From Bacteroidia bacterium (GTDB lineage: Bacteria; Bacteroidota; Bacteroidia; M30B66): 64,000 nucleotides of DNA. The stretch's first letter is position 1. Every line of letters starts with the position of its first letter. Of this stretch, positions 10,941-53,300 are shown piece after piece. The position numbers and the translations under genes were made by a program. The notes under the pieces were generated by a model. It saw nothing but the letters and a program-made list of their open reading frames with translations. It did no database searches and had not been told where the DNA came from. The stretch spans positions 37,810 through 101,809 of the forward strand of contig JAGYKL010000004.1 of NCBI GenBank assembly GCA_018401705.1. The letters are read 5' to 3'.

Positions 10941-12974
10941 ATGTTGATAAGAAATATTCTATTGGTATTCAGTTTGGTGTCCGGTAGTGTGGCTTTCGGA
11001 CAGATGCAAAAGAACAAGTCTGTTGTTACCGCAAAGTCTAAAGTTGCACAGCCTGAAGTGGCAGTAGCAAAAGATACTGGTGAAGCAGTGCTTTTAATTG
11101 TTGGTGGAGACCCTGTTACAAAGGAAGAATTTGAGGCTATATACAGAAAAAATAACACCAAGGAAACTAATTCAAGCAAAGAAGCTCTTGAAGAATATTT
11201 GCAGCTTTTCATCAACTTTAAATTAAAAGTTAAGGCAGCAAAAGACGCAGGAAAAGATACCGTTAACGCATTCAAGAATGAATTGAAGGGTTACCGCAGA
11301 CAATTAGCTCAGCCTTATTTGACTGATAAGGAAGTTAATGAACAGCTTATTGAAGAAGCATACAATAGAATGAAAACTGACGTACGCGCCAGTCATATTT
11401 TGATTTCATTGGGGGCCGACGCATTACCTAAAGATACTTTGGCTGCATACAAAAAAGCACTTTCTGTTCGCGAAAAGCTAATGAAAGGTGAAGATTTTGA
11501 AACACTTGCACGCAAATATTCAGAAGACCCTTCTGCTCAGCAAAATGGAGGTGACTTAGGTTATTTTACTTCGATGATGATGGTTTATCCATTTGAAAAT
11601 GCTGCATACAACACAACTAAAGGAGAAGTTAGTATGCCAATCAGAACCAGATTTGGATATCACATTGTTAAGGTAAATGATATTCGTCAAGCTCAAGGCC
11701 AAGTGCGCGTTGCTCACATCATGGTTAAAGTAAACGAAAAGGATAATGATACAACTGCAGCTAAAGCAGAAACAAAAATTAATGAGATTTACAAAAGGGT
11801 ACAAGAAGGTGAAGATTTCTCTTTGCTAGCAAGTCAGTTTTCTGATGATAGAACATCAGGAAAGAATGGTGGTCAGTTGCCTTGGTTTGGAACAGGTAAA
11901 ATGGTTCCTGAATTCGAAAAGGTTGCTTTCTCTTTGAAAGAAGAAAATGAATTAAGCAAGCCTTTTAAATCAGCCTATGGATGGCATATTGTTAAGCTTC
12001 TTGAGAAAAAAGGGATTCCTTCATTTGATGAAATGAAGGTAGAATTGAAACAAAAAGTTTCGAAAGATTCTCGTTCGGAAGTCAGTAAGGAAGCTGTTTT
12101 GGACAGAATTAAGAAAGAGAATAATTTTAAAGAAGATACGAAAGCTCTCGAGCAGGTTATTGCTAAAGTAGATACAAGTTTCCTTTCAGGAACTTGGGAT
12201 TCTTCAGTTGCAGATAAACTTGTAAAGCCTCTGTTCTCTCTAGGTAACGAAGTAACTCCTCAAGATGAGTTTGCTAAATACCTTGCTCAAAATCAAAGTA
12301 AGCAGTCTAAATCATCTTCGGTTGAAGCATTGGTTCGTAAATCATACGAATATTTCAAAGAGCAGAAAATTATCGCTTTTGAAGATTCAAGACTAGAAGA
12401 GAAATATCCTGAGTTCAGGCTTCTAATGCAAGAATACCGTGATGGAATTTTATTATTCGAAATAACAGATGAAAATGTTTGGTCTAAAGCGCTAAAGGAC
12501 ACAGCCGGTTTGGAGCAGTTTTACGAACAAAACAAGTTCAATTATATGTGGGGAAAAAGAGCTGATGTTGTAATTTACAAAGCTTCTGATGAAAAGATTG
12601 CAAAATCAGCCCGTAAGCTAGTTGCAAAAAGGGCAAAGAAAAACGTGAGTTCCGAGGATGTTGTGAGTAAAATCAACAAAACTTCTCAGTTAAATCTTCA
12701 AGCCGAGAAAGGTCTTTTTTCAAAAGGAGACAATGAAATTGTTGATGGCATAAATTGGGAAAAAGGTATTTCTGAAAACAAAGTTAATTCTGATGGAACA
12801 GTTTATTTTGTTGAGGTTGTTGAAATTATGGAACCTATGCCAAAAACAATCGCAGAGGCTAGAGGTTTAATTACAGCAGATTATCAAAACTTTCTCGAAA
12901 AAGAATGGATAACAGAGCTGAAGAAGAAATATGATGTAACTGTTAATCGCAAAGTATTCGAAACGATTAAATAA
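10941..12974 (+). CDS. periplasmic peptidyl-prolyl cis-trans isomerase, two parvulin (PpiC) domains, SurA-like
   Basis: Signal peptide. Two rotamase motifs (GGDLGYF...GYHIVKV and GGQLPWF...YGWHIVKL). Confidence 0.8.
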   Translation: MLIRNILLVFSLVSGSVAFGQMQKNKSVVTAKSKVAQPEVAVAKDTGEAVLLIVGGDPVTKEEFEAIYRKNNTKETNSSKEALEEYLQLFINFKLKVKAAKDAGKDTVNAFKNELKGYRRQLAQPYLTDKEVNEQLIEEAYNRMKTDVRASHILISLGADALPKDTLAAYKKALSVREKLMKGEDFETLARKYSEDPSAQQNGGDLGYFTSMMMVYPFENAAYNTTKGEVSMPIRTRFGYHIVKVNDIRQAQGQVRVAHIMVKVNEKDNDTTAAKAETKINEIYKRVQEGEDFSLLASQFSDDRTSGKNGGQLPWFGTGKMVPEFEKVAFSLKEENELSKPFKSAYGWHIVKLLEKKGIPSFDEMKVELKQKVSKDSRSEVSKEAVLDRIKKENNFKEDTKALEQVIAKVDTSFLSGTWDSSVADKLVKPLFSLGNEVTPQDEFAKYLAQNQSKQSKSSSVEALVRKSYEYFKEQKIIAFEDSRLEEKYPEFRLLMQEYRDGILLFEITDENVWSKALKDTAGLEQFYEQNKFNYMWGKRADVVIYKASDEKIAKSARKLVAKRAKKNVSSEDVVSKINKTSQLNLQAEKGLFSKGDNEIVDGINWEKGISENKVNSDGTVYFVEVVEIMEPMPKTIAEARGLITADYQNFLEKEWITELKKKYDVTVNRKVFETIK

Positions 12975-12990
12975 TAATATCAAATTCTTA

Positions 12991-13030
12991 TTTGCCCGTT
13001 TTGGTGATTCACCAGACGGGCAATTTTTTA
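12991..13030 (+). terminator. rho-independent terminator (nested hairpin plus T-run)
   Basis: ttgcccgt...tggtgaTtcacca...acgggcaa followed by tttttta, 17 bp after the stop. Confidence 0.6.
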
Positions 13031-13043
13031 GTTATTCATCAGA

Positions 13044-13901
13044 ATGCAAAAAGCAATTCATTATTTCATTTTAACAACGGCTATAGCCTTCATTTCGGCC
13101 TGTAATAATGATGATGTGAAAAAAGATGCTATTGCTAGAGTTCATGACAAATATTTATCAAAAGCTGAATTAGCGAGAGCTATACCCTTTGGTTTAAAGG
13201 GTGAAGATAGCGTGAGTTTTGCAAACGAATTTATTACTCAATGGTTAAAGCAAAATCTAGTTCTTAGAAAAGCTGAGAATAATCTAAATGATGAAGAAAA
13301 GGATGTTTCAAGGCAGTTAGAAGATTATCGTACTTCACTTATCATTTTTGCATACGAAAGAGAATTGGTCAAGCAAAAGCTTGATACACTTGTTTCTGAT
13401 GACGAAATCTCTAAGTATTATCAAGAACACCCTAATAATTTTGAGTTAAAGAGTAACATTATTCGACTCAAATACATCAAGCTTCCAAAGAAAACGCCTA
13501 ATAGTGACAAGGCTAAGAAATGGTTTCGGTCTGAAAAGGAGGAAGAGCAAAATAAAATCCAACAATTCGCAAAGCTTTATGCCGTTAATTTTCTTTTAGA
13601 TGATAGTAATTGGCTTTTATTAGAAGATGTTATAAAGGAAATTCCTTTAGATGAAAATGAGATTGGAAATGTGAATAATCAACCAAAGTTTATAGAGCTT
13701 TTTGATGAAAAATACCAGTATCTTGTAACAGTTACAGGCTTCATGGTTAAGGACAGCCAAGCTCCGCTTGAATTTGAAAAAAATACAATTAGAAACATCA
13801 TTCTCAACAAAAGAAAAATACTATTAATACAAAAAATGCAGGATGATGCATACAATGACGCATTGAATGAAAAAGATATTGAAGTTTATGGGAATAACTA
13901 A
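13044..13901 (+). CDS. hypothetical lipoprotein (possible SurA-N-like chaperone domain)
   Basis: Lipoprotein-type signal (AFISAC). Lies in an operon between two PPIase genes. Confidence 0.4.
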   Translation: MQKAIHYFILTTAIAFISACNNDDVKKDAIARVHDKYLSKAELARAIPFGLKGEDSVSFANEFITQWLKQNLVLRKAENNLNDEEKDVSRQLEDYRTSLIIFAYERELVKQKLDTLVSDDEISKYYQEHPNNFELKSNIIRLKYIKLPKKTPNSDKAKKWFRSEKEEEQNKIQQFAKLYAVNFLLDDSNWLLLEDVIKEIPLDENEIGNVNNQPKFIELFDEKYQYLVTVTGFMVKDSQAPLEFEKNTIRNIILNKRKILLIQKMQDDAYNDALNEKDIEVYGNN

Positions 13902-15246
13902 GAAGCTCTTTTTTAGTACATGCCTAATTTTGGTTTTTATCTTCACTTCAGGAGAAGTGGCCTCACAACCTGTAACCATCGACAAAATTATCGCCGTGGT
14001 AGGAGATGAGGCAATATTACTATCAGATATTGAGGCTCAGGCCTTTCAAATTGAACAGCAAAATGGAATCAAAGACCCTGACTTACGCTGCAGAGTTTTA
14101 GAAGAAGTTATTATTCAGAAACTTCTTTTGAATCAGGCTGAAAAAGATTCTGTGATTGCTAGTGATGAAATGGTAGATGCCGAACTGAATAAAAAAATCA
14201 GATTTTTTGTGAGCCAGATTGGATCTGTTGAGGCTCTAGAAGATTACTTAGGTAAGAGCCTTTTAGCAATCAAAGAAGAGTTTAGGGATAGAATTCGTGA
14301 CCAAATAACCATTCAGCAAATGCAGTCTCAAATAGCTGGTGACGTAAATGTTTCTCCTTCAGAAGTTAAGGCGTTTTACGCTGAAATACCAACAGATTCA
14401 ATTCCTTTTATTGAGAGTGAAATACAAGTAGCTCAAATTTTAGCAAAACCTCCTGTAAATGATGCCGAACGCGATCGCGTTAGAAACGAACTAAAGGAAA
14501 TTAAACAAAAAATTGTTGATGGTAGGAGCTTCGCTTCTATGGCTGCATTTTATAGTCAGGATCCGGTTTCAGCTGCAAAAGGAGGTGAGCTGGGCTTTGT
14601 GAATAGAGGAGATCTGGTGCCTGAATTTGAAGCTGCAGCCTTTGCATTAAAAGGTAGCGAAATTTCAGATATCGTTGAGTCTACCTACGGATTTCATATT
14701 ATTCAACTCATCGAAAGACGCGGTGAAACAATTAATGTGAGACACATTCTTTTATCGCCAAAAGCTTCGCCCGAAGACCTTGAGAAGGCTCGAAAAAGAC
14801 TTGATAGCCTGCAGCAAGCTATACGGTTAGGCGAAATTAATTTTGATGAAGCAGCCTTGAAATATTCGGATGATGAAGAAACAAAAAACAACTCTGGATT
14901 ACTCATCAATCCTGGTTCAGGTTCAACTTGGTGGGAAATATCCCAGCTCGATCAAAGCATTTTCTTTGCTATTGACAAGCTAAAGATAGGAGAGATGTCA
15001 GACCCAGTTTTGGTTCGCGAAGGAGAGAAGAAGACAGGCTACAGAATTCTTATGTTAAAAGCGAGGACTGAACCTCATAAAGCGAATCTTAAAGACGATT
15101 ATCAGCGTATACAGCAAGCTGCAGAAGCTAAAAAGAAAGAAGAGAAAGTTGATGAGTGGATAAAACGAAAGAGACCAAACTTTTTTATTAAAATTGACTC
15201 ACAGTATTCAGACTGTGATTTTCAAACAAATTGGAATCAACCTTAA
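13867..15246 (+). CDS. SurA-like periplasmic chaperone / parvulin PPIase
   Basis: Signal peptide. Rotamase motif GGELGFVNRGDLVPEFEAAAF...GFHIIQL. An alternative start at 13888 is possible. Confidence 0.75.
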   Translation: MKKILKFMGITKKLFFSTCLILVFIFTSGEVASQPVTIDKIIAVVGDEAILLSDIEAQAFQIEQQNGIKDPDLRCRVLEEVIIQKLLLNQAEKDSVIASDEMVDAELNKKIRFFVSQIGSVEALEDYLGKSLLAIKEEFRDRIRDQITIQQMQSQIAGDVNVSPSEVKAFYAEIPTDSIPFIESEIQVAQILAKPPVNDAERDRVRNELKEIKQKIVDGRSFASMAAFYSQDPVSAAKGGELGFVNRGDLVPEFEAAAFALKGSEISDIVESTYGFHIIQLIERRGETINVRHILLSPKASPEDLEKARKRLDSLQQAIRLGEINFDEAALKYSDDEETKNNSGLLINPGSGSTWWEISQLDQSIFFAIDKLKIGEMSDPVLVREGEKKTGYRILMLKARTEPHKANLKDDYQRIQQAAEAKKKEEKVDEWIKRKRPNFFIKIDSQYSDCDFQTNWNQP

Positions 15247-17918: not shown

Positions 17919-19361
17919 TTATATACCTAAGCCATAGTAAGCTTTCGCACCATTTGGATAGACTCCTTCTATAAGTAATCCCTTTCTTTCAGATTTTAAT
18001 GCATTAGTGATGTCTGAAATAGAATTTACTTGCTTCTCTCCTATGTTAGTTATTATAAATCCTTCTTTAATCCCAATATTGCGCAATCGACCTTCTCTAA
18101 TATTCTCAACTTTAAGCCCACTATTTAATTTGTATGCATTCTTCTCTATCTCACTAAGTGGGGTGAATTCTGCTCCCAACTCATTAGCTACCGATTCAGT
18201 ATACTTAATTAAACGTGTATCGCCATTGCGATTTTTAAGTTGAAGATTCAGTTCTTTAGTTTTTCCACCTCTGCTTATAAGGAGTGCAACTTCATCGCCA
18301 GGACGATATCTACCAACCTGCTCTTGTAATTCAGGAATATTATTTACTTCTGCGCCCTGAATGGACAAAATGATATCTCCTTCTTCAATTCCCGCACTTT
18401 CAGCTGCGCCACCTGCATTTAATCCTGAAACATAAACACCCTTAATTGTTTCAATATTCTTTTTCTTTGCTAAATCAGCATTCAGGTCTTCAAGAACTAC
18501 TCCTATAAATGCTCTTTGTACTTCTCCAAATTCCAGTAAGTCAGCAACAACTTTTCTTACGATATTTACCGGTACTGCAAAGGAATAACCTGAATAAGAG
18601 CCTGTATTTGATGCAATTGCAGAATTAATTCCAATGAGCTCTCCATTGGCATTAACTAATGCTCCTCCGCTATTTCCAGGATTTACTGCAGCATCAGTCT
18701 GGATAAATGATTCAATGGCAAATTTTTCGTTCAGAATGTTAATGTTTCTGCCTTTAGCACTAATAATACCCGCTGTAACGGTGGATGTTAAACTAAAAGG
18801 ATTTCCAACTGCGAGTGCCCATTCACCAACCTTAACTTCATCAGAATTGCCATAGTATATAAATGGCAGATTTTGAGCATCCACTTTTAATAAGGCAAGG
18901 TCAGTACTTGGGTCAGTCCCAATTACTTCTGCTGTATACTCTCTCTTATCATTTAAGACAATTTCAACCGATTCGGCATTTTGCACAACGTGATTATTGG
19001 TGACGATAAATCCATCTTCTGATATAATAACACCAGACCCAGAAGCTCTTGCTTTTTGAGGAGGCGCATTTCTATATGGGTTCCCAAAAAAGAAATCGTA
19101 GAAAGGGTCTGAACTAGCATTCCTTCTATTTGCAGATACTGTTTTAACGTGAACTACTCCATGCAATGATTGTTCGGCTGCAGAAGTTAAATCTGGCGCA
19201 TTTGCCAAATTGGCAGTTTGTCCTGAAGCAAGATGAACCGGAAGTCGCTCAGCTGTAAGTCGCTCATATCCATTTTGGTCCTCTTGAAAAAACTGATTGA
19301 TACTGATTGCTGCAACACCCCCTAAAAAGGCTATGAGCAGCGTTGACATAATTTTCTTCAT
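17919..19361 (-). CDS. degP: Do/DegP/HtrA periplasmic serine endoprotease with PDZ domains
   Basis: Trypsin-like motif GNSGGALVNANGELIGI. Two PDZ-like C-terminal regions. The start is set at the ATG giving MKKIMSTLL, a signal peptide (track ORF extends to 19418). Confidence 0.85.
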   Translation of the reverse strand: MKKIMSTLLIAFLGGVAAISINQFFQEDQNGYERLTAERLPVHLASGQTANLANAPDLTSAAEQSLHGVVHVKTVSANRRNASSDPFYDFFFGNPYRNAPPQKARASGSGVIISEDGFIVTNNHVVQNAESVEIVLNDKREYTAEVIGTDPSTDLALLKVDAQNLPFIYYGNSDEVKVGEWALAVGNPFSLTSTVTAGIISAKGRNINILNEKFAIESFIQTDAAVNPGNSGGALVNANGELIGINSAIASNTGSYSGYSFAVPVNIVRKVVADLLEFGEVQRAFIGVVLEDLNADLAKKKNIETIKGVYVSGLNAGGAAESAGIEEGDIILSIQGAEVNNIPELQEQVGRYRPGDEVALLISRGGKTKELNLQLKNRNGDTRLIKYTESVANELGAEFTPLSEIEKNAYKLNSGLKVENIREGRLRNIGIKEGFIITNIGEKQVNSISDITNALKSERKGLLIEGVYPNGAKAYYGLGI

Positions 19362-19565
19362 AAGGTAAAATCGATTTTTTAATAAACTTTTTAAAATCAA
19401 AAAACGTGCCCGTGTCAATTGTTGGTCATGAACAAATTACTGTGAATGAATCGTTAGCACAAGAATATTTGATGAACATTTTCACACTAGGTTTGTATAA
19501 TCAACGCAAAGGAGTTATTAAGTGTTGTGAAGTGGAATTGATTTAACTTTTTTTTCAAAATCATT

Positions 19566-20237
19566 ATGAGATCTCCCGGGTCAAGGGCGTTTACATTTTT
19601 AATTGGTATCCTCATAGGAATGCTTGCTGCAATTGGCTTGGTGTTTCTTATGGTGAATCAGTTTAATCCGTTTGCTTTCTTTAATAATGAATCTGGAATC
19701 AATCAGCGCGACACCATTGTAGATACAAGAGTGTCAAAAAAAATAAATTCTTTATCAAAGGTCAAAAGTAAAGAGAATCTGAAACTTGAAATAGTTACAA
19801 CCTCTCCGAAAATTGATAGCAACGCATCTGAATTCAAAAATGAAATTCAAGTATTGAATCTTGACCAAGAAGAAATTATCATTAAGCGTGATGAGTTTTT
19901 AAGTTACACTGAAGTCGAAATCATTCGCATTAACGTCGGTCAAGAATTTCAACCCAGAGATTCTCTGATAAATAAGCTTCAGGGAAACCCTGAAATTAAA
20001 AAGACTATTAGGATAGAGTTTTGGAAATCTCCTGTTAACTATCAAGGTTATAGGTTATTGGCTAATAAGATTATGCTTTTTGGAATGGTGCAAGAAACTC
20101 GCCTTATGGTTTATAAATTTAAAGATGTTCTCTATTTAAGGAACGGCAGGTTAGTTTATAAGATTGTTGAAAATGATGATTTCGAATCATTCGAAAAAGT
20201 AACTGATGATTCAATTCTCAAAGTGTTAAACCCATGA
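19566..20237 (+). CDS. hypothetical membrane-anchored protein (single N-terminal TM)
   Basis: N-terminal hydrophobic helix. No known domain. ATGA overlap with the dapF start. Confidence 0.4.
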   Translation: MRSPGSRAFTFLIGILIGMLAAIGLVFLMVNQFNPFAFFNNESGINQRDTIVDTRVSKKINSLSKVKSKENLKLEIVTTSPKIDSNASEFKNEIQVLNLDQEEIIIKRDEFLSYTEVEIIRINVGQEFQPRDSLINKLQGNPEIKKTIRIEFWKSPVNYQGYRLLANKIMLFGMVQETRLMVYKFKDVLYLRNGRLVYKIVENDDFESFEKVTDDSILKVLNP

Positions 20238-21025
20238 TTATTTCTTTTCATAAATACCAAGCTACCGGTAATGATTTTGTAATTATTGACGACCGCGAAC
20301 GACGTTTTGACATTCAGAATAGCAGCCTCATTCAAACCCTCTGTAACAGAAGATTTGGAATTGGGGCAGATGGTCTAATTGTGATAAGGTCAGAGCCCGG
20401 ACATGACTTTCGTATGATATATTTTAATGCTGATGGCTACGAAGGATCTATGTGTGGAAATGGAGGCAGATGTGCAACTGCTTTTGCAAACGTTCTTTTT
20501 CCAGAAAAAAAAGAATTCAGTTTTAAGGCTTTTGATGGTTTACATACTTCAAAAATAAGTCAGGTTAAAAACAATGGATTTCTTGTTAGCCTTAGTATGA
20601 GTGATGTTAAGTTACCCAATGACTTCGGCGAAGATGTTGTTTTGAATACAGGTTCGCCTCATTATGTTCAATTTGTAAACGATGCAGGTATTGTAGATGT
20701 TTCTTCCGCTGGTCGTTTAATTCGTAATTCTGAACCATACCTTAGAGAAGGAATTAATGTCAATTTTGCGGAAGTTCATAACGATACTTTAACCGTAAGA
20801 ACTTATGAAAGAGGTGTTGAAGAGGAAACTCTTTCTTGTGGAACTGGCGTTACTGCTTCAGCAATTTCGGCTTTTCACAAAAAATTAATTCAAAGTCCAG
20901 ATGTAAAAGTTTTCACGCGTGGCGGCGAATTAGAAGTCAAATTTAAGCTCAATGAAAATGGCTATTCTGATATTGTTTTATCAGGAGAAGCTCATCCTGT
21001 TTTTCAAGGAGTTATTGAAGTATGA
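20234..21025 (+). CDS. dapF: diaminopimelate epimerase
   Basis: YQATGNDFVIID. The catalytic Cys motif SMCGNGGRC. A second Cys in CGTGVTAS. Confidence 0.9.
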   Translation: MIISFHKYQATGNDFVIIDDRERRFDIQNSSLIQTLCNRRFGIGADGLIVIRSEPGHDFRMIYFNADGYEGSMCGNGGRCATAFANVLFPEKKEFSFKAFDGLHTSKISQVKNNGFLVSLSMSDVKLPNDFGEDVVLNTGSPHYVQFVNDAGIVDVSSAGRLIRNSEPYLREGINVNFAEVHNDTLTVRTYERGVEEETLSCGTGVTASAISAFHKKLIQSPDVKVFTRGGELEVKFKLNENGYSDIVLSGEAHPVFQGVIEV

Positions 21026-21540
21026 ACCATGTTTTTTATTGCGAATTACCAGAAGTTACATTTGAGTTAAACCCTTGCGGATTTTATATTTTATTGATTA
21101 ATGTAAACCAGGGACCTCCTCATTTAGCAATTGTTTTCTGTAATAGATATTATTCGGTAACAATAAATTCAGTAAGCCTGGGGGTCGACTTTCAGCCAAA
21201 ATATAACTCACTTTTAAGGAAAAATTTACCATTGCTTTTTTTGGAAATTGATCAACTTTCTAGCCGAGAAGTTATTCTTACTAAACTAAATAATGTTTTT
21301 GGATTAATTTCTCCCCTGTTGGGGGATGGTACCACTTGTCTTGCTCCAATCAAAAGAAGTTTTGAGCAAATTTTTGCATTGCATTCTGAAGCAATCCTGA
21401 TATCAGATTTATTGAAAGAGCTTCAACAATTAACTTTGATTAAGAACGTGGGTTCACCTAATCTGAATTCCGGCAATTTTCAATTAAAGCCTTACAGCAT
21501 TCAAGATGTTGAAAGACACATCAACTCTCTTTTGAAATAA
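21022..21540 (+). CDS. hypothetical cytoplasmic protein
   Basis: 172-aa ORF. Its ATGA overlaps the dapF stop. No family recognised. Confidence 0.35.
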   Translation: MNHVFYCELPEVTFELNPCGFYILLINVNQGPPHLAIVFCNRYYSVTINSVSLGVDFQPKYNSLLRKNLPLLFLEIDQLSSREVILTKLNNVFGLISPLLGDGTTCLAPIKRSFEQIFALHSEAILISDLLKELQQLTLIKNVGSPNLNSGNFQLKPYSIQDVERHINSLLK

Positions 21541-21590
21541 ATTTCTCTCTTACCTGTAACTTTTTTCAATTACTTTCACCTTAAGGTGAA

Positions 21591-24500
21591 TTGAAGAATC
21601 TCGTTATGCTAAAAAGTTACTTTGCTCTATTGTTTGTTTTCATTAGCGTTACTCTTTTGTCGCAAGAGTCTCTCCAACCTCCTACCGCCCAAAAAAGACC
21701 TGTTTGTGATACAATTCATGGAGATATAAGATGTGATGAATATCAATGGATGCGTCAAAAGAATTCTCCTGAAGTAATAAATCACTTATATGCCGAAAAT
21801 GGGTATGCCGAGAGGTACATGAAGCAACATAGTCTTTTAATTAAGAAGATTTATGAAGAAGTTAAAGGAAAGATTGTTGAAGATATTCAGTCAGAACCAT
21901 CAAGGTCAAAAAAGCACCTTTATTATACTCGCTACGAAAAAGGAAAAGAGTATCCAAAATATTTCAGAAAAGCTGATACTCTCAATGCTCCAGAAATATT
22001 ACTCTTAGACATAGATTCTTTGGCAAAGAATTTTGCGAATTTCAACTTAAGCTCTTTGAGCATTAGTCCATCAAATGAAAGATTACTTTATGGTATTGAT
22101 ACCAAAGGCGACAGGCTGATGGATGTTTACTTCAAAGCGATTAATAGTGAAGAAATTTATCAAGACACCATTAAGCAAATCACAGGTATTTGCTGGTTTG
22201 GAAACGATGAGGTGATTTATACCATTCCTGAAAAAGACAGTAAAAGATCATTTAAAGCCTATAAACACAAGCTTAATACTCCTAAATCGGAGGATATTCT
22301 TATAGCATTCGAACAAGACCCGGTTTTTCAATTAAGCTTTTCAAGATCGAGCTCTGAGCGTTTTGTTTTTATGGGATCTACAAGCACTCTCAGCAGTGAG
22401 TTTAGCTTTTTCGATTTTGAGAATCCAGGCAAAGGCTTTCAGCTAATTGAACCGAGAAAACCAAACCATGTTTATTCTCCATCCCATATTGATGGTGAAA
22501 GTTTTATTGTAAATACTGATTTTGAAGCACCTAACGGAAAGCTAATGTTGGCTCCTGTTAATAACCCTTCTCAATCAAATTGGCAACAATTTCTTCCTCA
22601 TCGAGATGATGTTCTTTTGTCTGATTATGCAATTTATGGCGATTATTTAATTGTGGTTGAGCAATTTGATGCAAGAGAAAGATTAGTGAAAATTAATAGA
22701 AAGAACGGCCAACGAGATACAATAGAACTTCCTCTCGAACCTTCTTCTGTAGGTCTGTCATCCTATTATGAGCATGATGAAGGAAAATTTAGGTATAGTT
22801 TTACATCAATGAAACATCCAGGTGAAACCTGGGAAGTCGATTTAACTTCAGGTGAGAGGAAATTTATTCATCGAGATACAATTAACGGTAATTATAACCC
22901 AGCTGACTACGTTAGTGAAAGGATATATGCTATTTCGAAGGATGGAGAGTCGATTCCGCTAACACTCTTGTATAAGAAGGGGCTTAAAAAAGATGGTGCA
23001 AATCCATTGTGGATTAATGCTTACGGTTCATATGGAAACTCTTCTTTACCAGGTTTCTCTATCTCAAGCATTAGCTTAGCCGACCGTGGTTTTGTTGTTG
23101 CAACAGCTCATGTTAGAGGAGGGAGTGATTGTGGTAGGTATTGGTATGACAACGGGAAACTCTTAAAGAAGAAGAATACCTTTTACGATTTAATAGCTTG
23201 TGCAGAAAAGCTCATTAGCGATAATTATTCTAAAGCAGATAAAATAGTTGTTTCGGGTGGAAGTGCAGGTGGTTTATTAGTGGGAGCTGTTATGAATATG
23301 CGTCCTGATTTATTTGGTGCTGCAATCGCAAATGTGCCTTTTGTTGATGTGATCAACACAATGCTAGATTCATCATTGCCTTTAACTACTTTCGAATATG
23401 ATGAGTGGGGAAATCCTAATGATTCAGTTTATTACCATTACATCAAGTCTTATGCGCCTTACGAGAATGTAAAGGCTATGAACTATCCACCAATTCTTGC
23501 TACAGCAGGATATAATGATTCTCAAGTGCCTTATTGGGAGCCAGCTAAATGGGTTTCCAGACTTAGGTCTTTAAAAACAGATTCAAATGTTGTCTTATTT
23601 AAAACTAATATGGATGCAGGTCATGGTGGAAGCTCAGGTAGATATGGGCGACTAAAGGATATGGCCTTCGATTATGCTTTTGCCTTTCAGGCGATAGGTT
23701 TAGAAGAAAATTACATAGTTATTAATGGTACTACAAAAGATTCTGAAGCTAATATCTTACCTTTTGTAAACGTTTATATTGAAGGCACAACACAAGCAAC
23801 TGCAAGTAATGAAAACGGAAGGTTTTCCTTGGAAATAAAAAAAGGAGATAAGTTAAATATTGTATTTTCTTCGATTGGTTTTAAGAAGGTAGTAATTCCG
23901 ATTACAATAAATACACCTCTTGATAATTTAGATGTTCTTCTTCAAGCCGAGAATTACCAGATAAAGACATTTGAAGTGCGAGCAGATGCAAAAGATCCAG
24001 CTTATGCTGTGATGAAAAAAGCTATAGAAAAAAGGAAGTTTCATTTAGAACAAGTTGATTCATATTCATCTGATATTTATATTAAAGGCGCTGTAAGATT
24101 GGATAAGATTCCTGAGAAACTACCTTTCTTTATTTCTAAATCACAAATGCCTGATTCAAGTGATTTGGGCTTGGTTTATTTATCCGAATCGGTGGCACGG
24201 TATCATGAAAAAAAGCCTGATTTAGTTAAGGAAGAAATGATGGCATCGAAAGTGGCTGGACTTAAACAAGGTTTTAGCTGGAATCGAGTTTCCGATGTAT
24301 TGATGAATTTTTACAAAAACCTTGTAGATATAGCATACTATTCTGACAGAGGTTTTGTATCTCCAGTTTCAGAATCAGCAATGTTCTATTACAAGTACAA
24401 AATGATTGGCACTTTCGTTGAAAATGGTCTGACAATCAATCGTATTTCTATTGAACCGCGCCGAAAGTTTGATCCATGCTTTCGTGGGGAAATTTTCATA

Positions 24501-26141
24501 GTTGATGATTTGTGGAATATCCACAGCCTCGATTTGCAATTGACAAAAGATGCTCAAATTGAGTTTGTTGATACTCTCTTTATTAGACAAGAGTATGTTG
24601 CTGTTGAAGATAATATTTGGATGCCATTAACTCTTCAGCTAATGAGTCACATTAGCGTTTTTGGCTTTTCTGCAACCGATAAGTCTATTGGCGTTTTTTC
24701 CAACTATAAAATTAATCCCCCTTATGATAAGAGGTTCTTTGGAAACGAAATTTTTAAAATCGAAGAAAAAGCAAATCAAAAAGACACTGTTTTCTGGGAA
24801 GATACAAGACCTGTGACCTTAACCGAGGAGGAGATTGAGAATTATCGAAAGGCCGATAGTACTGAACAGGTTCAGTCTTCTAAACCTTATCTTGACTCAC
24901 TTGACAGAGTAACGAATAAAATAGGCATAGGAGATGTCCTTTTTGGCGGAATTGATTTTTCGAATTCATTTGAAAAGAAGTTCTGGCGAGTAAGTCCACT
25001 AATTACCATGGCATCCTTTAATGTTGTGGAGGGTTTATATCTCAATCCTGAATTAGTTCGAAGAATTAATCCCGAAAACAATGAAATATCCATTTTTAAA
25101 GCTTCAGTTCGTTATGGGTTTTCTGACTTTAGATACAAACCTTCAGCATCATATTTCAAGTTAACAAATCCTTCAAATTTTAATTGGTGGTATATTAAAG
25201 GAGGAAGAATGATGTCCCAAATAAATGGTGATGATCCTATTCAGCCAATAGTTAATGCAGGATACACGCTGCTTGATAAGCGCAATTTGATTAGATTATA
25301 TGAGAAAACGGGTCTGGAAATCATTTGGAACAAAGAGCTATTTAATGGGCTAATGTTTCAGGGCGCTGCTTCTTGGTTTCAACGTATAATTCCAAATAAT
25401 AAAAGCGATTTTTCTTTCAGTGATAAGAATGATGCTTATTCCTTAAATAGAGATATAGTTGATCTAAATGATAAAATTGATAATTATGAAAGCACGTATG
25501 CCGGAGTAAACATAAAGATGAGCTACCGCATTAAACAGAAATATGAAACGCGTGGAAACAGGAAAATAATTAGAGGTTCAAAATGGCCTTTACTTACTGT
25601 TGAGTATGAACAAGCGTTAAGTGGAATTGCTGGAAGCGATGTGAAATTCTCTCGAATGGAGTTCGCGGTTTCCGATCGTTTAGATCTTGGTTTATTAGGT
25701 AATTTCAGTTACAAAGTAATTGGAGGTACTTTTCTAGATAATTCTAATATGACCTTTATTGATTACCGACATTTTAATGGGAATGAGACTTTCTTTTTGC
25801 GCAATTTTGGTTCTGAAACACCTTATAATATTTTCAGAAATGGATTAAATAGATTCAATGCTTTGCCATATTATTCTTCAAGTACTAATGGGGCTTTCGC
25901 CCAGTTTCATATTGAGCAAGACTTTAGTAACTGGCTAACAAATAAAATCCCACTGCTCAGATTAGCAAGGTTGCAAACTCTAATTGGCTCAAATATTCTT
26001 TGGAGAGAGTCTCAAGATATTTACACTGAATTTTATCTTGGAATTAACAACATTCTTAAAGCATTCAGAATAGATTTTGTGAGTCAATACACCCCTGGCA
26101 AGGCAATAAAGCCTTTAGTAAGAATCGGAATAGACTTTTAA
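21591..26141 (+). CDS. fusion protein: S9A prolyl-oligopeptidase/oligopeptidase-B-like peptidase (aa 1-~700) fused in frame to a CarbopepD_reg + DUF5686-like module (aa ~705-1516)
   Basis: Signal peptide. The S9 nucleophile elbow GGSAGGLLVGAV and the C-terminal MDAGHGG...AFDYAFAFQAIGL are as in PtrB. With no stop, the reading frame continues into NYIVINGTTKD...LPFVNVYIEGTT, a carboxypeptidase-regulatory-like start, and then about 800 aa of a DUF5686-type protein. Confidence 0.7.
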   Translation: MKNLVMLKSYFALLFVFISVTLLSQESLQPPTAQKRPVCDTIHGDIRCDEYQWMRQKNSPEVINHLYAENGYAERYMKQHSLLIKKIYEEVKGKIVEDIQSEPSRSKKHLYYTRYEKGKEYPKYFRKADTLNAPEILLLDIDSLAKNFANFNLSSLSISPSNERLLYGIDTKGDRLMDVYFKAINSEEIYQDTIKQITGICWFGNDEVIYTIPEKDSKRSFKAYKHKLNTPKSEDILIAFEQDPVFQLSFSRSSSERFVFMGSTSTLSSEFSFFDFENPGKGFQLIEPRKPNHVYSPSHIDGESFIVNTDFEAPNGKLMLAPVNNPSQSNWQQFLPHRDDVLLSDYAIYGDYLIVVEQFDARERLVKINRKNGQRDTIELPLEPSSVGLSSYYEHDEGKFRYSFTSMKHPGETWEVDLTSGERKFIHRDTINGNYNPADYVSERIYAISKDGESIPLTLLYKKGLKKDGANPLWINAYGSYGNSSLPGFSISSISLADRGFVVATAHVRGGSDCGRYWYDNGKLLKKKNTFYDLIACAEKLISDNYSKADKIVVSGGSAGGLLVGAVMNMRPDLFGAAIANVPFVDVINTMLDSSLPLTTFEYDEWGNPNDSVYYHYIKSYAPYENVKAMNYPPILATAGYNDSQVPYWEPAKWVSRLRSLKTDSNVVLFKTNMDAGHGGSSGRYGRLKDMAFDYAFAFQAIGLEENYIVINGTTKDSEANILPFVNVYIEGTTQATASNENGRFSLEIKKGDKLNIVFSSIGFKKVVIPITINTPLDNLDVLLQAENYQIKTFEVRADAKDPAYAVMKKAIEKRKFHLEQVDSYSSDIYIKGAVRLDKIPEKLPFFISKSQMPDSSDLGLVYLSESVARYHEKKPDLVKEEMMASKVAGLKQGFSWNRVSDVLMNFYKNLVDIAYYSDRGFVSPVSESAMFYYKYKMIGTFVENGLTINRISIEPRRKFDPCFRGEIFIVDDLWNIHSLDLQLTKDAQIEFVDTLFIRQEYVAVEDNIWMPLTLQLMSHISVFGFSATDKSIGVFSNYKINPPYDKRFFGNEIFKIEEKANQKDTVFWEDTRPVTLTEEEIENYRKADSTEQVQSSKPYLDSLDRVTNKIGIGDVLFGGIDFSNSFEKKFWRVSPLITMASFNVVEGLYLNPELVRRINPENNEISIFKASVRYGFSDFRYKPSASYFKLTNPSNFNWWYIKGGRMMSQINGDDPIQPIVNAGYTLLDKRNLIRLYEKTGLEIIWNKELFNGLMFQGAASWFQRIIPNNKSDFSFSDKNDAYSLNRDIVDLNDKIDNYESTYAGVNIKMSYRIKQKYETRGNRKIIRGSKWPLLTVEYEQALSGIAGSDVKFSRMEFAVSDRLDLGLLGNFSYKVIGGTFLDNSNMTFIDYRHFNGNETFFLRNFGSETPYNIFRNGLNRFNALPYYSSSTNGAFAQFHIEQDFSNWLTNKIPLLRLARLQTLIGSNILWRESQDIYTEFYLGINNILKAFRIDFVSQYTPGKAIKPLVRIGIDF

Positions 26142-27527
26142 TTACTGAAGGAACTTCTTAATCCACTTGTTGAGCCTTAAGTAAGGAGGATATCTCAAGG
26201 TAATATCAGGGAAATAGCCTGATTTCATGATCGATTTTTTATGACTGAAAGTTTCGAATCCGGCCTTGCCATGATAATTGCCCATGCCACTGTATCCAAC
26301 TCCTTCTAGGGGCAATTCTGTATGCGCAAAATGAATCAACGGAATATTAATTCCACCACCTCCAAACCTTATGTTTTCTAAATAGAAGGTTTCCTTTTTG
26401 TTATTTTGAGTAAAAATGTAGCAAGCCAAGGGATATGGATTGACTTCGATAATTTCTAAAACTTCTTCCTTCGATGAGAAAGGTATTACTGGAAGAATTG
26501 GCCCAAAAATTTCATCCTTCATAACCTGTTCAGACAAGCTAACATAACTAAGAATTGTTGGTTCTATGTATAAATCAGCCTCGTCAACCTTCCCGCCTAA
26601 GGCAATTTTTCCATCATTTAAATAAGATTGGATTCTTCGAAAATGATTGGTATTTATTATTCGAGCATAGTCTTTAGAAAGTTGTGGATCATTACCGTAG
26701 AATTCGATTAAAGCAGATTTTAGTTCTGATAAAAATTCATCTTCAACAGAGTTGTCTACTAGCACATAATCAGGTGCGATACATGTTTGACCGGCATTCC
26801 AAAATTTGCCCCAAGCTATGCGCTTAGCTGCAACTTTTAGATTAGCATCTTTTTCAACTATGGCGGGACTTTTACCCCCTAATTCAAGAGTGACAGGGCT
26901 TAACGTTTTTGCTGCCATTCTCATAATCTCTTTTCCAACGGCAGGACTTCCGGTGAAGAATACATGATCGAAATGATGGTTCTCAATTAGCAATTGAACG
27001 TTTTGTTTGCCATCTCCTTCAACAACAGCTACGAATTCCTCATCAAACAGACTTTCAATAAACTTCTTTATAAACGCGGATGTATTTGATGAAATTTCTG
27101 AAGGCTTTATAATTACGCAATTTCCAGCGGCAATTGCGCTAATCAAAGGCGAGATGCACAGCATGAATGGATAATTCCATGGAGCAATAATTAACACCAA
27201 ACCTAATGGCTCTGTGATGATTTTACTGCTTGCAGGCCAATGAATTAATGGTGTGTCAATTGATTTGGCCATCATCCAATTTTGCAAGTGGCTAATGGTG
27301 AAATTCAATTCCATTTTGAGTGTCGAAATTTCACTTGAATAGCCTTCGAATTCAGGTTTTTTCAAATCTGCCTTTAGGCTTTGCAGAATTCCTTCTTCGT
27401 TTTCAGAAATAGCTTTTCTTAGCTTCAACAATTGACTATTTCTGAACTCGTAACTTCTTGTGGCTCCTGATTTGAAAAATCTTTGTTGTGATGCGAATAG
27501 TTCATCAATACGATTTACAGCAGCCAT
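26142..27527 (-). CDS. NAD(P)-dependent aldehyde dehydrogenase
   Basis: ELGGKSP glutamate motif. The catalytic Cys region GQTCIAPDY. About 460 aa. Confidence 0.85.
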   Translation of the reverse strand: MAAVNRIDELFASQQRFFKSGATRSYEFRNSQLLKLRKAISENEEGILQSLKADLKKPEFEGYSSEISTLKMELNFTISHLQNWMMAKSIDTPLIHWPASSKIITEPLGLVLIIAPWNYPFMLCISPLISAIAAGNCVIIKPSEISSNTSAFIKKFIESLFDEEFVAVVEGDGKQNVQLLIENHHFDHVFFTGSPAVGKEIMRMAAKTLSPVTLELGGKSPAIVEKDANLKVAAKRIAWGKFWNAGQTCIAPDYVLVDNSVEDEFLSELKSALIEFYGNDPQLSKDYARIINTNHFRRIQSYLNDGKIALGGKVDEADLYIEPTILSYVSLSEQVMKDEIFGPILPVIPFSSKEEVLEIIEVNPYPLACYIFTQNNKKETFYLENIRFGGGGINIPLIHFAHTELPLEGVGYSGMGNYHGKAGFETFSHKKSIMKSGYFPDITLRYPPYLRLNKWIKKFLQ

Positions 27528-29091: not shown

Positions 29092-29835
29092 TTATTCAAA
29101 GGTAAACGAAAGATAGAATGCTTTTGAGTGAATTGCGCTGAGGCCATCGGTATAAATATTCCCATCTTTCACAAGTAGATTGTTTAAGCCGTAGGCCATT
29201 TTTACTTCAGGTGTAAATTTGAAATATTGAGAATAAAGGTCAATGCCAAAGCCTATCTCATAATTGAAATCATTTCTTTTTAACTTTAGAATTCTTTCAC
29301 CTTGATCATCAACTTTATCCTGAGAAGCCAGGTCTATTACAGGCTTTATTCCTCCAATAATATAAGCTCTGCCATTATTTAATCGAGCTGATTTAAACTT
29401 CAATAAAAGAGGGAATTCAAGCAAGGTAGATTCTACACGCTTGGGTCTCACAAACATAGAATCCTGCGAAGGAAGGGCAATTGAATAGTTTAAAAGGCGC
29501 TCTCCAAATGACAATGTTGGTAAAAACCTTAAATCAAAATTATCGCCTAAATGCAAGTTAGAAACAATACCAATTCCGAAGCCCAGTGCAGATTGAGGCT
29601 CAACAATTAGTAGTGAGTCTAGCAAACGCATATCTTCAATTGGAGTAGGGGTAAAGGTGAATGAATTAACTCCGAGAAGAAATCCAAAATGAATGGTTTG
29701 TTTATCGTAGTTTGGAAGATTGAGAACCTTTCTCTTTTGCGCATTTACAGGCAAAGCAGTAACTATTGCCAGCAAAACTGGCAGGAACAAAATTAATCTA
29801 CTTGGTTTCAAACTTCTAGTAACTGCTATCTTCAA
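29092..29835 (-). CDS. PorT/SprT-like outer-membrane beta-barrel protein (T9SS-associated), putative
   Basis: Signal peptide. About 245 aa. Alternating-hydrophobic beta-strand pattern. Adjacent to ubiE, which is where PorT genes sit in Bacteroidota. Confidence 0.45.
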   Translation of the reverse strand: MKIAVTRSLKPSRLILFLPVLLAIVTALPVNAQKRKVLNLPNYDKQTIHFGFLLGVNSFTFTPTPIEDMRLLDSLLIVEPQSALGFGIGIVSNLHLGDNFDLRFLPTLSFGERLLNYSIALPSQDSMFVRPKRVESTLLEFPLLLKFKSARLNNGRAYIIGGIKPVIDLASQDKVDDQGERILKLKRNDFNYEIGFGIDLYSQYFKFTPEVKMAYGLNNLLVKDGNIYTDGLSAIHSKAFYLSFTFE

Positions 29836-47314: not shown

Positions 47315-47355
47315 TTTGAAGTATACATATATATATGTCTATAGAAAACTCGAAC

Positions 47356-50300
47356 ATGAAAAATATATACAAAAATTTAATCACGCTAACATTGCTCTTG
47401 TTGGGTTCAATCTCCTTGCAAGCTCAATGTCCATACAACAATAGTTTGTATGTATCAATTGGAGCTCCTTCAACTATTGGAGCTAGTGTAGGAGAAGAAT
47501 GTATTTTCCCAGGAGAATATATTCGTGTTACTGGAATGCAAGCAGGTAGTACTTACCGAATTTCAACATGTAATTCAACTGATGTTGCAGATACTCGTGT
47601 AACAGTTTATGCACAAGGCGGCGCCGGCGGTGCTTTAACATTCAATGATGATTTCTGTGGTCTACTTTCAAGAGTTGATTTTACTCCAACTTCTGATGGT
47701 GGATACGATATTCTAGTTGATCAGACTGGTCCAGGCAATACTTGCGAAAGTGGTACTGAATGCGTAGATCTTTCAATAACATTAATTGGGACTTCCGGTT
47801 CTACAGATTATTGTATTCCTACATACACTTTTGGAACTGCTAATGGAGACTTCATTAATGGAGTTAATCTCGAATCTATTGACAATCAAAATTCAGGTTC
47901 TGTTGGAGGACCAGCTTATAGTGACTTCACTAATTTAAGTACTAATTTAAGCAGCTCGACTTCTTACACCTTATCTGTAAGGAACAATCCTGATTACACT
48001 GAAATTGTTTCTGCTTGGATTGATTACAATCAAGATTTTCAATTTTCAGAAGATGAGCGATTAGGTCAAGTTACTATTTCAGCTAATCAAACTGGACTAA
48101 TTAACTTTACAACACCTGCCAATGTATTGCCTGGAGAAACCCGATTAAGAGTAAGAATGGTATTTTCTGTTCCTACCTCAGGTGGTTTAGTATCTGCATG
48201 TGGTTCATCAAGTGTTGGTGAGACTGAAGATTACAGTGTTAACTTTTCTTCAAATAACCCTCCGCCACCGCCGGGAGCTTTATCGTTCCAGACTTCATGT
48301 GGTTTAGGTTTGGCTATTCAAGATAATGCTTGTCCTAATTATACTCTTGCAACAGTAGAAGTTGGCGGATTAACTAGTCTTGGTTCTAATCATATATTAA
48401 GTTCTGCTGAGATTATCGTTTCTCATGCAATGGCCGCTGATTTAGATATTTATTTGGAAGGCCCTGATGGAACAATTGTAGAATTGTCTACCGATAATGG
48501 TGGTGCTGGAGCTGATTATGGAATTTACACTATTTCAGATTGTTCACAAACAGCACTTTTTTCAATGGGTGCTTCAACACCAATTGCTGGAAGTTTAGCT
48601 CCTTTTGTAGGAAGCTACATTCCTGAAGGTGATTTGAATGATTTCAATCAAGGCACAAATCCTAACGGTTTCTGGAGATTAAGAGTTTGTGATGATTTTT
48701 CCGGGGATGCTGGAGTTATTCAATACGTTAAATTGAATTTCGAATTAAATGCTACAGAACCTCCAGCTTGTGCTGAAAACTTTAACGTTACTGATGGGGC
48801 AGGTAATATAGCTTTAGATCAACAACTTTCTTGGTCAGCTGGTGCAGGAAACCCTACTGCTTATGATGTGTTTTTTGGAACAGATGAGAATAATCTTACG
48901 CTAGTATCAGAGAATCAGACAGAAACAACATATAACCCGGGAGCACTAGATCCTGCTACTAATTATTTTTACCAAATTGTTCCTTCAAATAATGCGGGAG
49001 CAGCAGTAGGATGCGCGGTTATTTCTTTTACTACTGTAGCCGATGACGTTACTACTATTTTAATGAGTAATGGTCAATCAACAACCTGTAATGCTAATTT
49101 CTTTGATTCAGGGGGGCCAAATGGAAATACTGCATTAGGAGGTATAGAGCCTTTTGTATATACAATTTTCCCTGATGCTCCTAATTCAGCAGTTCAAGTT
49201 AACTTTTCTTCATTTGAACTAGGCGACTTCGATTTGTTTGGAATCGCTGATGGTGAAGATGGCAACGCAGAAGTTGTTTATTTTTATCCTATTAATAATC
49301 TTGATGCTCCAGGCACCATTACAGCAACAAATCCTAGTGGAGCTTTAACATTTGTTTTTCAAGCAGATCCATTTGTTACACAGCCAGGCTGGGCTGCTTC
49401 AATTACTTGTGTGCCTTTTGGTTCTGTTCCTAATTGCGTCGAAAGCTCAACTCCTGCTAACGGCAGTTTATCAGTTCCATTAAATACTCAACTAAATTGG
49501 GTTGCAGGTTCAGGAGAACCTACTGGTTATGATATATATTTTGGAACAGATGTTAATCCTCCACTTGTAGCTAGTGATGTTGCTGTTACTACTTTCAATC
49601 CTGGGGTTTTAATTAATGAAACAACTTATTACTACCAGATTGTTCCAACAAATGCATCTGGAGCAGCAACTGATTGTCCAATTAATTCTTTTGTTACAGA
49701 AGTAAGCGCTGGTAACGTGGTTTTAATTAGTGATGGTACTGCAAGTTTATGCGAGGGATTCTTTTATGATAGTGGAAACTCAAGTGGAGACTATTCTAGT
49801 GGAGAAGACTTTGAATTAACTATTACTCCTGATAGCCCTAACAGCGCTATTGAAGTTGAGTTCTCAAGCTTCAGTGTTGAAGAAGAATTTGATGTTCTGA
49901 CTGTATATTCAGGCACAGGAACTAGTGGTCTTGTACTTGGCACTTTAACAGGTAACGTTGTTACACCTCTTTCTTTTACTTCTGTTTCTCCCGATGGAGC
50001 TCTAACTTTTGTTTTTACATCTGATTTTCAAGTAACTAGCACTGGATGGCAAGCAACAATTTCTTGTGTTGAGCCATTGACTGCTCCAGGCTGTGTAACT
50101 CCAATTTCACCTTTAGATGGCGCTGTTGGAGTACCTGTTTCTGGTTCAATTGCTTCTTGGGCTCCAGGTGCTGGGGGAGATGTTTTGACCTACGACTTGT
50201 TTTTTGGTACAGATGAATTGAATTTATCACTTGTTTCTGATGACCAGGCTGAATCGGTATTTAACCTACCTGATTTAGAAAACAATACGATATATTATTG

Positions 50301-53300
50301 GTTAGTAGTTCCTAGTAACTTAGTTGGATCACCTTCTGACTGTCCAATATTTTCTTTCAGAACCGCTATTGCTATAGAAGTTCCAAGTTGTGCTGAAATT
50401 GTTTCACCTGCAGATGGGGCAACAGACATTCCTGTTTCAGGATCAGTTGCTTCATGGGCTGCAGCTGCAGGAGGAGATGCCCCAGATTCATATGACTTAT
50501 TCTTTGGAACTGATTCTGGAAATCTTACTCTTGTATCTGACAATCAGGTTGAAACTACTTTCAGCTTGCCTGATCTTGATTTTTCAACTGAATACTTTTG
50601 GCAAGTTGTTCCTTCTAATGAAGCAGGAGAAGCTGTTAATTGTCCGATTGTAAGTTTTACAACTGTTGCTGATGTTCAAGCTCCTGCTTGTGCAGAAATT
50701 GTTTCTCCAGCTGACGGAGCAATTGCTGTTCCTGTTTCTGGCTCATCTGCAGAATGGACAGCTGGTTTAGGAGATGCTCCTGATACGTATGATCTATACT
50801 TTGGAACGGACTCTGGAAACCTCACTCTTGTTTCTGATAATCAAACTGAAACAACTTTTAATCTTCCAACACTTGATTTTGCAACTGAGTATTTCTGGCA
50901 AGTTGTTCCTGCTAATTCTGCTGGTGAAGCAGTTGGTTGTCCAATTGTCAGCTTCACCACAGAAGAAGAGCCAATTGTTACTGATATTTTAATGCAAAAT
51001 GGTTCTTTGACTGTTTGTTCTGGTACTTTTACTGATGATGGAGGTGCAACTGCTAACTATTCAAATGATCAGAATTTAGTATTAACTCTAACACCGGAGA
51101 TTCCTGGAAATGTTCTACAGGTTAATTTCTCTTCTTTCGTACTTGAGGATAATTTTGAATTCCTGACTATATATGATGGTAACTCTGTTGCTGAACCACT
51201 AATTGGAACATTTACAGATGTTGACTCACCTGGAAGTATAGTTTCTTCGGCTGCAGATGGATCTCTAACATTTGAGTTTGTTTCTGATGCGAGTCTTAAT
51301 TTTGCTGGTTGGGTTGCTGAAGTTTCATGTATTGATCCTAATGCGGCACCTGAATGTGCTATTAACCTAAGTCCAGCTGACGGTCAAACTGAAGTTTCGG
51401 TTTTACCTTCACTTACATGGACAAATGGAGGAGGAGTTGTTGTTGGATATGATGTTTATTTTGGAACTGATCCTGAGAATTTAGTTCTTGTTTCAGCTTC
51501 ACAGGCCGAAACAACTTTTCTACCTGGAGATTTAGATTTAAATACAACATATTATTGGCAAATTGTCCCAGTAGGTGCTTCAGCATCTTCAGAAGGGTGT
51601 GCAGTGCTATCATTTGTAACAGAGGTTAATCCTTCTGTTTTAATGCAAGATGGTTCCATATCTATATGTTCGGCTAATTTCTTTGATGCAGGTGGAATAG
51701 ATGGTAATTACCCATTAGATGTTGATCAAACGTTAACTATTACACCAGATCAACCAGGGAATTTACTTCAAGTTACATTTACATCTTTTGAACTTGAAAA
51801 TACTTGGGATTTCTTAACAATTTTTGACGGTAATTCTACTGCTGCACCAATAATTGGTGCATTTACAGGAACTGCTCCTGGAGGAACTGTTCCAACTGGT
51901 CCAATTTTATCTACTGCAGCTGATGGAAGTCTAACATTCAATTTTACATCTGATGCATCAACAACTTTATCTGGTTGGTCTGCTATTGTTGAGTGTATTA
52001 ATCCGAATGCAGTTGCAGAATGTGCTCAGAACTTTGTACCAGCAGATGCTAGTACTGAAGTTTCTCCGGCAGCTCTTAATTTAACTTGGTCTCCAGGAGC
52101 TAGTATAGTTACTGGTTATGATGTTTATTTTGGAACAGATCCTGATAATTTGGTTCTGGTATCTGAAAATCAAATTGGATCTTCTTTTAGTCCAAGTGAT
52201 TTAGACCTTAACACAACTTATTACTGGCAGATTATTCCTATCAATGAGAATGGGGCAGCTGTAGATTGCATAGTTAATTCATTTACAACTTCTTCTGTAT
52301 TAGACATCGTTATGTCAAATACAACAGTTACAACTTGTGATGCTAATTTCTTTGATTCGGGAAATCTTGCTTTAAATTATGGTAATGATGAGGATTTAAC
52401 TTTAACAATCTTCCCTGATCAACCTGGTAATGCAGTTCAAGTAAACTTTAGTTCTTTCGATATTGAAGAGAATTTTGAATTCTTGACAATATTTGACGGT
52501 AATGATAATACTGCTCCTGTCATTGGAGTGTTTTCTGGAGATGTTGACGGTGGTATTATTCCTGTTGGGCCTATTACTTCAAGTGCAGCAGATGGTAGTT
52601 TGACGTTTAATTTCACATCTGATGTTTCATTGAACTTCGCCGGTTGGCAAGCATCAATATCATGCGTCTCTGCTGAAGAAGTTCCTGGTTGTATTACCAA
52701 TGCCTCGCCTTTAGATGCTGCAATTGATGTTGATGTAACAACAATACTTAATTGGAGTGCAGGTTCAGGTGTTACTTTAGGTTACGATGTTTTCTTTGGT
52801 ACTGATTCTGAGAATTTGGTTTTAGTATCAGATGATCAAACAGCTACATCTTTTGACCCGGGTCAATTGGAATTAAACACAACTTACTTCTGGCAAGTTG
52901 TCCCTTTTAATTCTAGTGGTTCTGCAGTTGATTGCCCAGTGTTAAGCTTCACAACAGCATCTGAGATTAACTTAGTTATGTTTAATGGTGAGGTCACACT
53001 ATGTGAAGGGAATTTATTTGATTCTGGAGGACCAGATGCTAACTATCAGAGTAATGAAGATTTTACATTAACTGTATTTCCATCAACTCCAGGAGCTCTA
53101 ATTCAAGCTGAATTCATTAGTTCAGCAATTGAGAATGGATTTGATAATTTAGATATTTACAGCGGAAGCAGCGTGACTGGGACTCCTGATTTAACATTAA
53201 CAGGAACCGTTCTTCCACCAGTTTTAGTTTCTTCTGCAGCAGATGGTAGCTTAACATTCAACTTTACATCTGATATTTCAGTTGCTCAAGCTGGCTTTGA

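Follow-up and report, generated by a model that had tools for sequence, protein, structure and literature searches.

The window analysed here, the whole stretch of 64,000 nucleotides from contig JAGYKL010000004.1 of the Bacteroidia bacterium assembly GCA_018401705.1 (positions 37,810 to 101,809, forward strand), carries at 21591..26141 (+) a gene in which an oligopeptidase B (OpdB) of peptidase family S9 runs in frame into a complete DUF5686 protein. The frame is continuous and conserved; its only export signal is at the N-terminus, and both the catalytic residues and the DUF5686 module are intact. Judged from comparative sequence data, this is a conserved single gene and not an assembly or stop-codon artefact, and we consider it fairly probable that its product is an envelope protein of about 170 kDa in which the DUF5686 barrel tethers OpdB to the inner face of the outer membrane.

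The open reading frame (ORF) is stop-free over 1516 codons, a length that has a chance of about 8e-47 given the base composition, and holds four Pfam domains: Peptidase_S9_N (PF02897, residues 30-426, E 2e-77), Peptidase_S9 (PF00326, residues 489-703, E 2e-65), CarbopepD_reg_2 (residues 711-791, E 8e-14) and DUF5686 (PF18939, residues 807-1485, E 8e-200, profile positions 1-669 of 669). The DUF5686 match scores 666 bits against a gathering cut-off of 39.2 bits, with CarbopepD_reg directly N-terminal to it, and only about seven residues lie between the end of the S9 profile and the start of CarbopepD_reg. A first-pass annotation, made from the letters alone, had described an in-frame fusion of an S9 peptidase to a CarbopepD_reg/DUF5686 protein; the four domains in one ORF agree with that description, the C-terminal part matches both of the models named, DUF5686 over its full profile, and the motifs quoted (GGSAGGLL, AFDYAFAFQAIGL and LPFVNVYIEGTTQATASNENGRFSL) are all present. 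The true start is probably ATG 21606 and not TTG 21591, because the homologues are 1511 amino acids long and begin at an aligned Met. The gene is laid out in the window as follows:

21606..21662 (+): probable start ATG and Sec signal peptide of the signal peptidase I type (Sec/SPI), MLKSYFALLFVFISVTLLS, then Q; placed by the alignment of the homologues' Met
21678..22868 (+): S9 N-terminal beta-propeller (PF02897)
23055..23699 (+): S9 catalytic alpha/beta-hydrolase (PF00326; alignment to Serratia OpB, 7ywp)
23256-23273 (+): catalytic Ser in GGSAGG, aligned to 7ywp
23394-23417 (+): acidic specificity motif EYDEWGNP, aligned to 7ywp
23511-23528 (+): catalytic Asp in YNDSQV, aligned to 7ywp
23613-23630 (+): catalytic His in DAGHGG, aligned to 7ywp
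23700..23720 (+): junction linker LEENYIV (family consensus LG-x-KENY-I), from the alignment of fused homologues
23721..23963 (+): CarbopepD_reg_2, which resembles the periplasmic N-terminal extension (NTE) of SusC-type transporters
23985..24950 (+): DUF5686 middle domain, an open beta-barrel fold like that of LolA/LolB with additional helices; no other part of the family is as conserved
24951..26138 (+): DUF5686 C-terminal beta-barrel of about 16 strands, last residues RIGIDF
25749..25895 (+): long conserved loop between the 6th- and 5th-from-last strands (the Omp85 L6 position), from DSSP of the model
25761-25787 (+): loop motif DYRHFNGNE, within the L6-position loop
26139..26141 (+): stop codon TAA

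The same architecture is found well beyond this assembly. Among 5.8 billion proteins, a homologue search found 42 clusters that share the four domains; they are 1,503-1,532 amino acids long, with identities from 98% to 36% and coverage of 98-100%, and come from JGI, ENA, NCBI and Logan assemblies. HMMER, run exhaustively over 1.84 billion representatives at 50% identity, gave 11 full-length and two truncated fused clusters, compared with hundreds of stand-alone DUF5686 clusters. Full-length fused proteins number 54 in total. In alignments of 27 and later all 54 of them the junction is essentially gap-free and keeps the same register even in the deepest members, and the linker has a mean pairwise identity of 0.58, compared with 0.46 for the adjoining CarbopepD_reg domain. 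Both halves are under purifying selection. A single ORF spans both halves at the seven loci L001, L003, L005, L006, L081, L082 and L083. In L081, a 4.2-Mb contig (ERZ26867466 ctg28238) whose fusion protein is 59% identical, the gene order around the single fused gene is that of the window, with SurA, MoxR, GAPDH, HtrA, an unassigned ORF, DapF and a further unassigned ORF upstream and Aldedh, an FAD protein, an outer membrane protein (OMP), UbiE and PfkB downstream.

The first-pass annotation had offered two alternatives, a genuine fusion or a lost stop or frameshift, and had pointed to synteny in relatives as a check. The reading in which a lost stop, a frameshift or a chimeric assembly joined neighbouring genes is refuted by the homologues, the junction alignment, the synteny, the single ORFs and a base composition and guanine-plus-cytosine (GC) content that continue without a break across the junction, since the same fusion recurs in 54 proteins of independent assemblies, down to 36% identity and in the same register, and no DUF5686 gene adjoins any stand-alone OpdB; no evidence in its favour came to light, and its probability is practically negligible. 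Nor does the cryptic internal start suggested near the junction fare better, as the linker has no conserved Met and no signal peptide lies downstream, which agrees with the earlier remark that the second half has none of its own. A promoter and terminator scan of 21000-26600 gave counts at the level of shuffled sequence, with nothing unusual at the junction. Three short proteins that begin inside the S9 tail (P0055, P0072 and P0074) seemed to split the gene; P0055 is a contig-edge truncation, and P0072 and P0074, both on contigs of about 3 kb, look like truncations of the same kind.

Stand-alone OpdBs stop 2-10 amino acids past the point where the fused proteins run on. In a neighbour-joining tree of the S9 half the 54 fused proteins form one clade, with 66 stand-alone OpdBs outside it (38 of 40 bootstraps), whereas in the corresponding DUF5686 tree they are not one clade: 44 of the 54 group together, and true stand-alones fall among the rest. 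These stand-alones, P0065/P0081 (L085) and P0062/P0063/P0066, are genuine DUF5686 proteins with their own signal peptides, interleaved with fused ones. Their placement suggests a secondary loss of S9 in some lineages. Since even the deepest members share one junction register, independent fusions seem to us less likely than a single fusion event after which S9 was occasionally lost, or than a tree that is simply poorly resolved. An exported OpdB would have taken the place of a DUF5686 protein's signal peptide, once.

Residues 24-694 align with residues 2-672 of Serratia proteamaculans OpB (PDB 7ywp, E 8e-155), and the GGSAGG, NDSQV, GHGG and EYDEWGNP motifs are identical in the two proteins. 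The triad Ser553, Asp638 and His673 (numbered from the ATG) is invariant in all 54 fused proteins; of the acidic pair, E597 is retained in 44 and D/E599 in 47 of them. In OpdB this acidic pair gives specificity for Arg or Lys at P1, and we infer that the fused peptidase is an active-looking, Arg/Lys-specific oligopeptidase B. Against NCBIfam PRK10115 it scores 508 bits, below the equivalog cut-off of 1313 bits, and by this measure it is a divergent subfamily and not a PtrB equivalog.

The leader of about 19 residues reads as a Sec/SPI signal. The residue at +1 is Gln, in keeping with the Bacteroidetes Q-rule (PMC5837995), and the leader is extra to Serratia OpB, since OpB residue 2 aligns with residue 24. 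A hydrophobic stretch followed by [ASGT]Q occurs in 48 of the 54 fused proteins and a lipobox-like sequence in only one. Of the 66 stand-alone OpdB relatives, 38 have export signals under a simple hydrophobicity heuristic, and in many of these a lipobox-like Cys comes next, so that exported, membrane-tethered OpdBs seem to be common in Bacteroidota and many of the stand-alone ones may be lipoproteins. In some of the stand-alone OpdBs (L007-L080) the lipobox-like Cys precedes acidic residues.

The AlphaFold2 model of the DUF5686 half, based on 77 sequences, reaches a predicted local distance difference test (pLDDT) of 89.2 and a predicted template modelling score (pTM) of 0.84. The predicted middle domain has a LolA/LolB-like open beta-barrel fold, and the modelled C-terminal barrel is structurally closest to Omp85 proteins, the translocators FhaC and CdiB among them. 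At the level of sequence, separate Pfam searches with the barrel and the middle domain returned only DUF5686 and no Omp85 (PF01103) at E ≤ 10, and the family (A2) profile against PDB sequences gave NTE/CarbopepD_reg matches only, with no BamA, TamA or FhaC at E ≤ 1; Pfam found no POTRA domain, and a LolA-like domain precedes the barrel instead. The 49-residue loop at the L6 position is the most conserved element of the barrel, with at least 85% identity in 11 of its 49 columns compared with 24 of 266 in the remaining barrel, and its motif is DYxHFxGN, not the VRG(F/Y) of Omp85. No residue that is invariant across the A2 alignment of stand-alone DUF5686 proteins varies in the fused set. A Tannerella forsythia DUF5686 protein is present in an outer-membrane-vesicle proteome, where it is labelled outer membrane (PMC10682907). 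The literature search met the term DUF5686 in one paper only, in a proteome table, and found no paper that gives the family a function.

The structural likeness to FhaC and CdiB favours a reading by analogy with type Vd secretion, in which an Omp85-like barrel would move the N-terminal peptidase to the cell surface, and enzyme-Omp85 fusions do have a precedent in PlpD (patatin, POTRA, Omp85 barrel), whose enzyme domain is exported (PMC4104836). Yet POTRA and Pfam Omp85 matches are lacking, and the barrel did not evolve for autotransport, since most DUF5686 proteins carry no passenger; the passenger here would be a propeller plus hydrolase of about 680 amino acids, bound through a short, rigid and conserved linker to domains which SusC-type proteins have in the periplasm. 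We therefore regard surface display as quite unlikely.

The reading that we favour, an OpdB tethered to the inner face of the outer membrane, can be put as a sequence of steps. After Sec export, the barrel assembly machinery (BAM) would insert the C-terminal DUF5686 barrel in the outer membrane, while the LolA-like domain, the NTE-like CarbopepD_reg and OpdB would stay in the periplasm, because the first strand of the barrel begins on the periplasmic side. An Arg/Lys oligopeptidase held on a short conserved linker at this membrane face would cleave short peptides, and the barrel would serve where a lipid anchor seems to serve in many stand-alone Bacteroidota OpdBs. It is probable that DUF5686 retains a function of its own, which may be to handle hydrophobic or lipidated cargo. 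The first-pass annotation had proposed that the peptidase is tethered to a surface-type module: the tethering is kept here as a likely arrangement, but the module is a predicted integral outer-membrane barrel that follows periplasmic domains and is not necessarily exposed at the surface.

Several points weigh against this tethered arrangement. The model covers the C-terminal half only, so the geometry from S9 to barrel lies outside it, and the lipobox calls come from a crude heuristic. The distant fused members share no conserved neighbours that would hint at a substrate; stand-alone DUF5686 genes have no conserved neighbours either. The stand-alone OpdB genes in L007-L080 all lack a DUF5686 gene within 8 kb; for this reason a common gene pair was not the source of the fusion, and the two functions have no independent link.

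A closer functional coupling has also to be weighed, in which DUF5686 would work in the outer membrane as a machine that handles lipoproteins or other hydrophobic cargo, and the peptidase would either process its clients or be a captured former lipoprotein client. The conservation of the LolA/LolB-like fold above all other parts of the family, the predicted Omp85-like barrel and the lipoprotein-like appearance of many stand-alone OpdBs all point this way, as does the fact that the export of surface lipoproteins in Bacteroidota has no known machinery and is LolA/LolB-independent in Flavobacterium johnsoniae (PMC11885536, PMC12889592). We hold such a coupling to be unlikely. The more specific model, in which a LolB-like acceptor and an Omp85-like barrel, both of them predicted folds, would together insert or flip lipoproteins or lipidated cargo, with OpdB as captured former client or processing enzyme, is decidedly doubtful.

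One further possibility is a polyprotein cut at the linker, which would leave the OpdB free in the periplasm and the DUF5686 protein on its own. In many homologues the linker contains a Lys (LG-x-K-ENY), a potential cleavage site for OpdB, but the window protein and its closest relatives are without it (GLEEN, GLQEN, GLDEG), and the short conserved linker resembles a structural interface. OpdB enzymes generally spare folded proteins, which also counts against cleavage, and we judge this reading very improbable.

If the tethering is true, the fusion places trypsin-like oligopeptide cleavage at the outer membrane in a group of uncultured Bacteroidota, and is a natural case of an S9 peptidase with an integral barrel, not a lipid, as its anchor. 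DUF5686 is widespread in Bacteroidota, and its predicted LolA-like and Omp85-like layout makes it a candidate in outer-membrane lipoprotein or lipid biogenesis; should the lipidated-cargo reading be true, it would be a candidate for the missing step in surface-lipoprotein export. Fused proteins are already present in public databases, automatically named "oligopeptidase B" or "DUF5686 family protein". We found no paper that describes an OpdB-DUF5686 fusion, and it is absent from a survey of S9 domain architectures published in 2014.

The window has no paralogue of either half. Genes of envelope biogenesis occupy 10941-15246 and 17919-19418, a short way upstream of the fusion: three ORFs in a row, then MoxR and an HtrA/DegP-type protease (-), and at least the first and third of the ORFs before MoxR look SurA/PpiC-like; this arrangement is kept in L081 and not in the distant fused members. 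Two ORFs of 223 and 172 amino acids (19566-20237 and 21022-21540, +) flank dapF and have no Pfam match, and L081 has counterparts of the same size in the same positions. A small OMP_b-brl_2 barrel protein at 29092-29835 (-) adjoins ubiE and is also conserved in L081. At 47335-57741 (+) a 3,468-amino-acid ORF with GEVED, CUB, fn3 and PKD domains ends in a Por_Secre_tail, the mark of type IX cargo, and the organism thus has a type IX secretion system; the fusion protein has no Por_Secre_tail. Two other OpdB proteins from the homologue search have further domains. P0043 (1,233 amino acids, a singleton cluster) pairs OpdB with envelope modules in another way: FecR_C/STN and CarbopepD_reg at its N-terminus are separated by about 370 unassigned residues from a complete OpdB at its C-terminus. 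In P0044 (998 amino acids) a PD-(D/E)XK nuclease / REase-ARP domain comes after OpdB, and this protein could be a read-through artefact or another fusion.

Each part of the protein can be set beside a known system. The peptidase shares its two-domain fold family, its triad and the EYDEWGNP motif with OpdB (PtrB, MEROPS S9A), and differs from Serratia OpB by the added signal peptide and an outer-membrane module of about 810 amino acids at the C-terminus. Stand-alone DUF5686 proteins of about 815-880 amino acids have the complete CarbopepD_reg and DUF5686, at 33-43% identity to this half, and, as the first-pass annotation had stated, usually stand alone with a signal peptide of their own, which in the fusion is replaced before CarbopepD_reg by signal peptide plus OpdB. 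The periplasmic N-terminal extension of SusC/RagA transporters matches the CarbopepD_reg of the fusion, but the fusion lacks the Pfam Plug and TonB-dependent receptor barrel and has about 16 strands where they have 22. Unlike LolA and LolB, including LolA3 and LolB of Porphyromonas gingivalis, the middle domain shares one polypeptide with a barrel, shows no similarity to them in sequence and carries many conserved polar residues. In the Omp85 proteins with N-terminal enzymes (PlpD/type Vd, "Metallo" and WD40 subfamilies; Heinz and Lithgow 2014, PMC4104836), as in the fusion with its predicted Omp85-like barrel, an enzyme precedes the barrel in one polypeptide, and they raise the same question of periplasm or surface, whereas the fusion has no POTRA or Omp85 sequence match and has a LolA-like domain and an S9 peptidase instead. 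The fusion is best seen as a variant on two known themes, exported S9 peptidases and enzymes joined to outer-membrane barrels.

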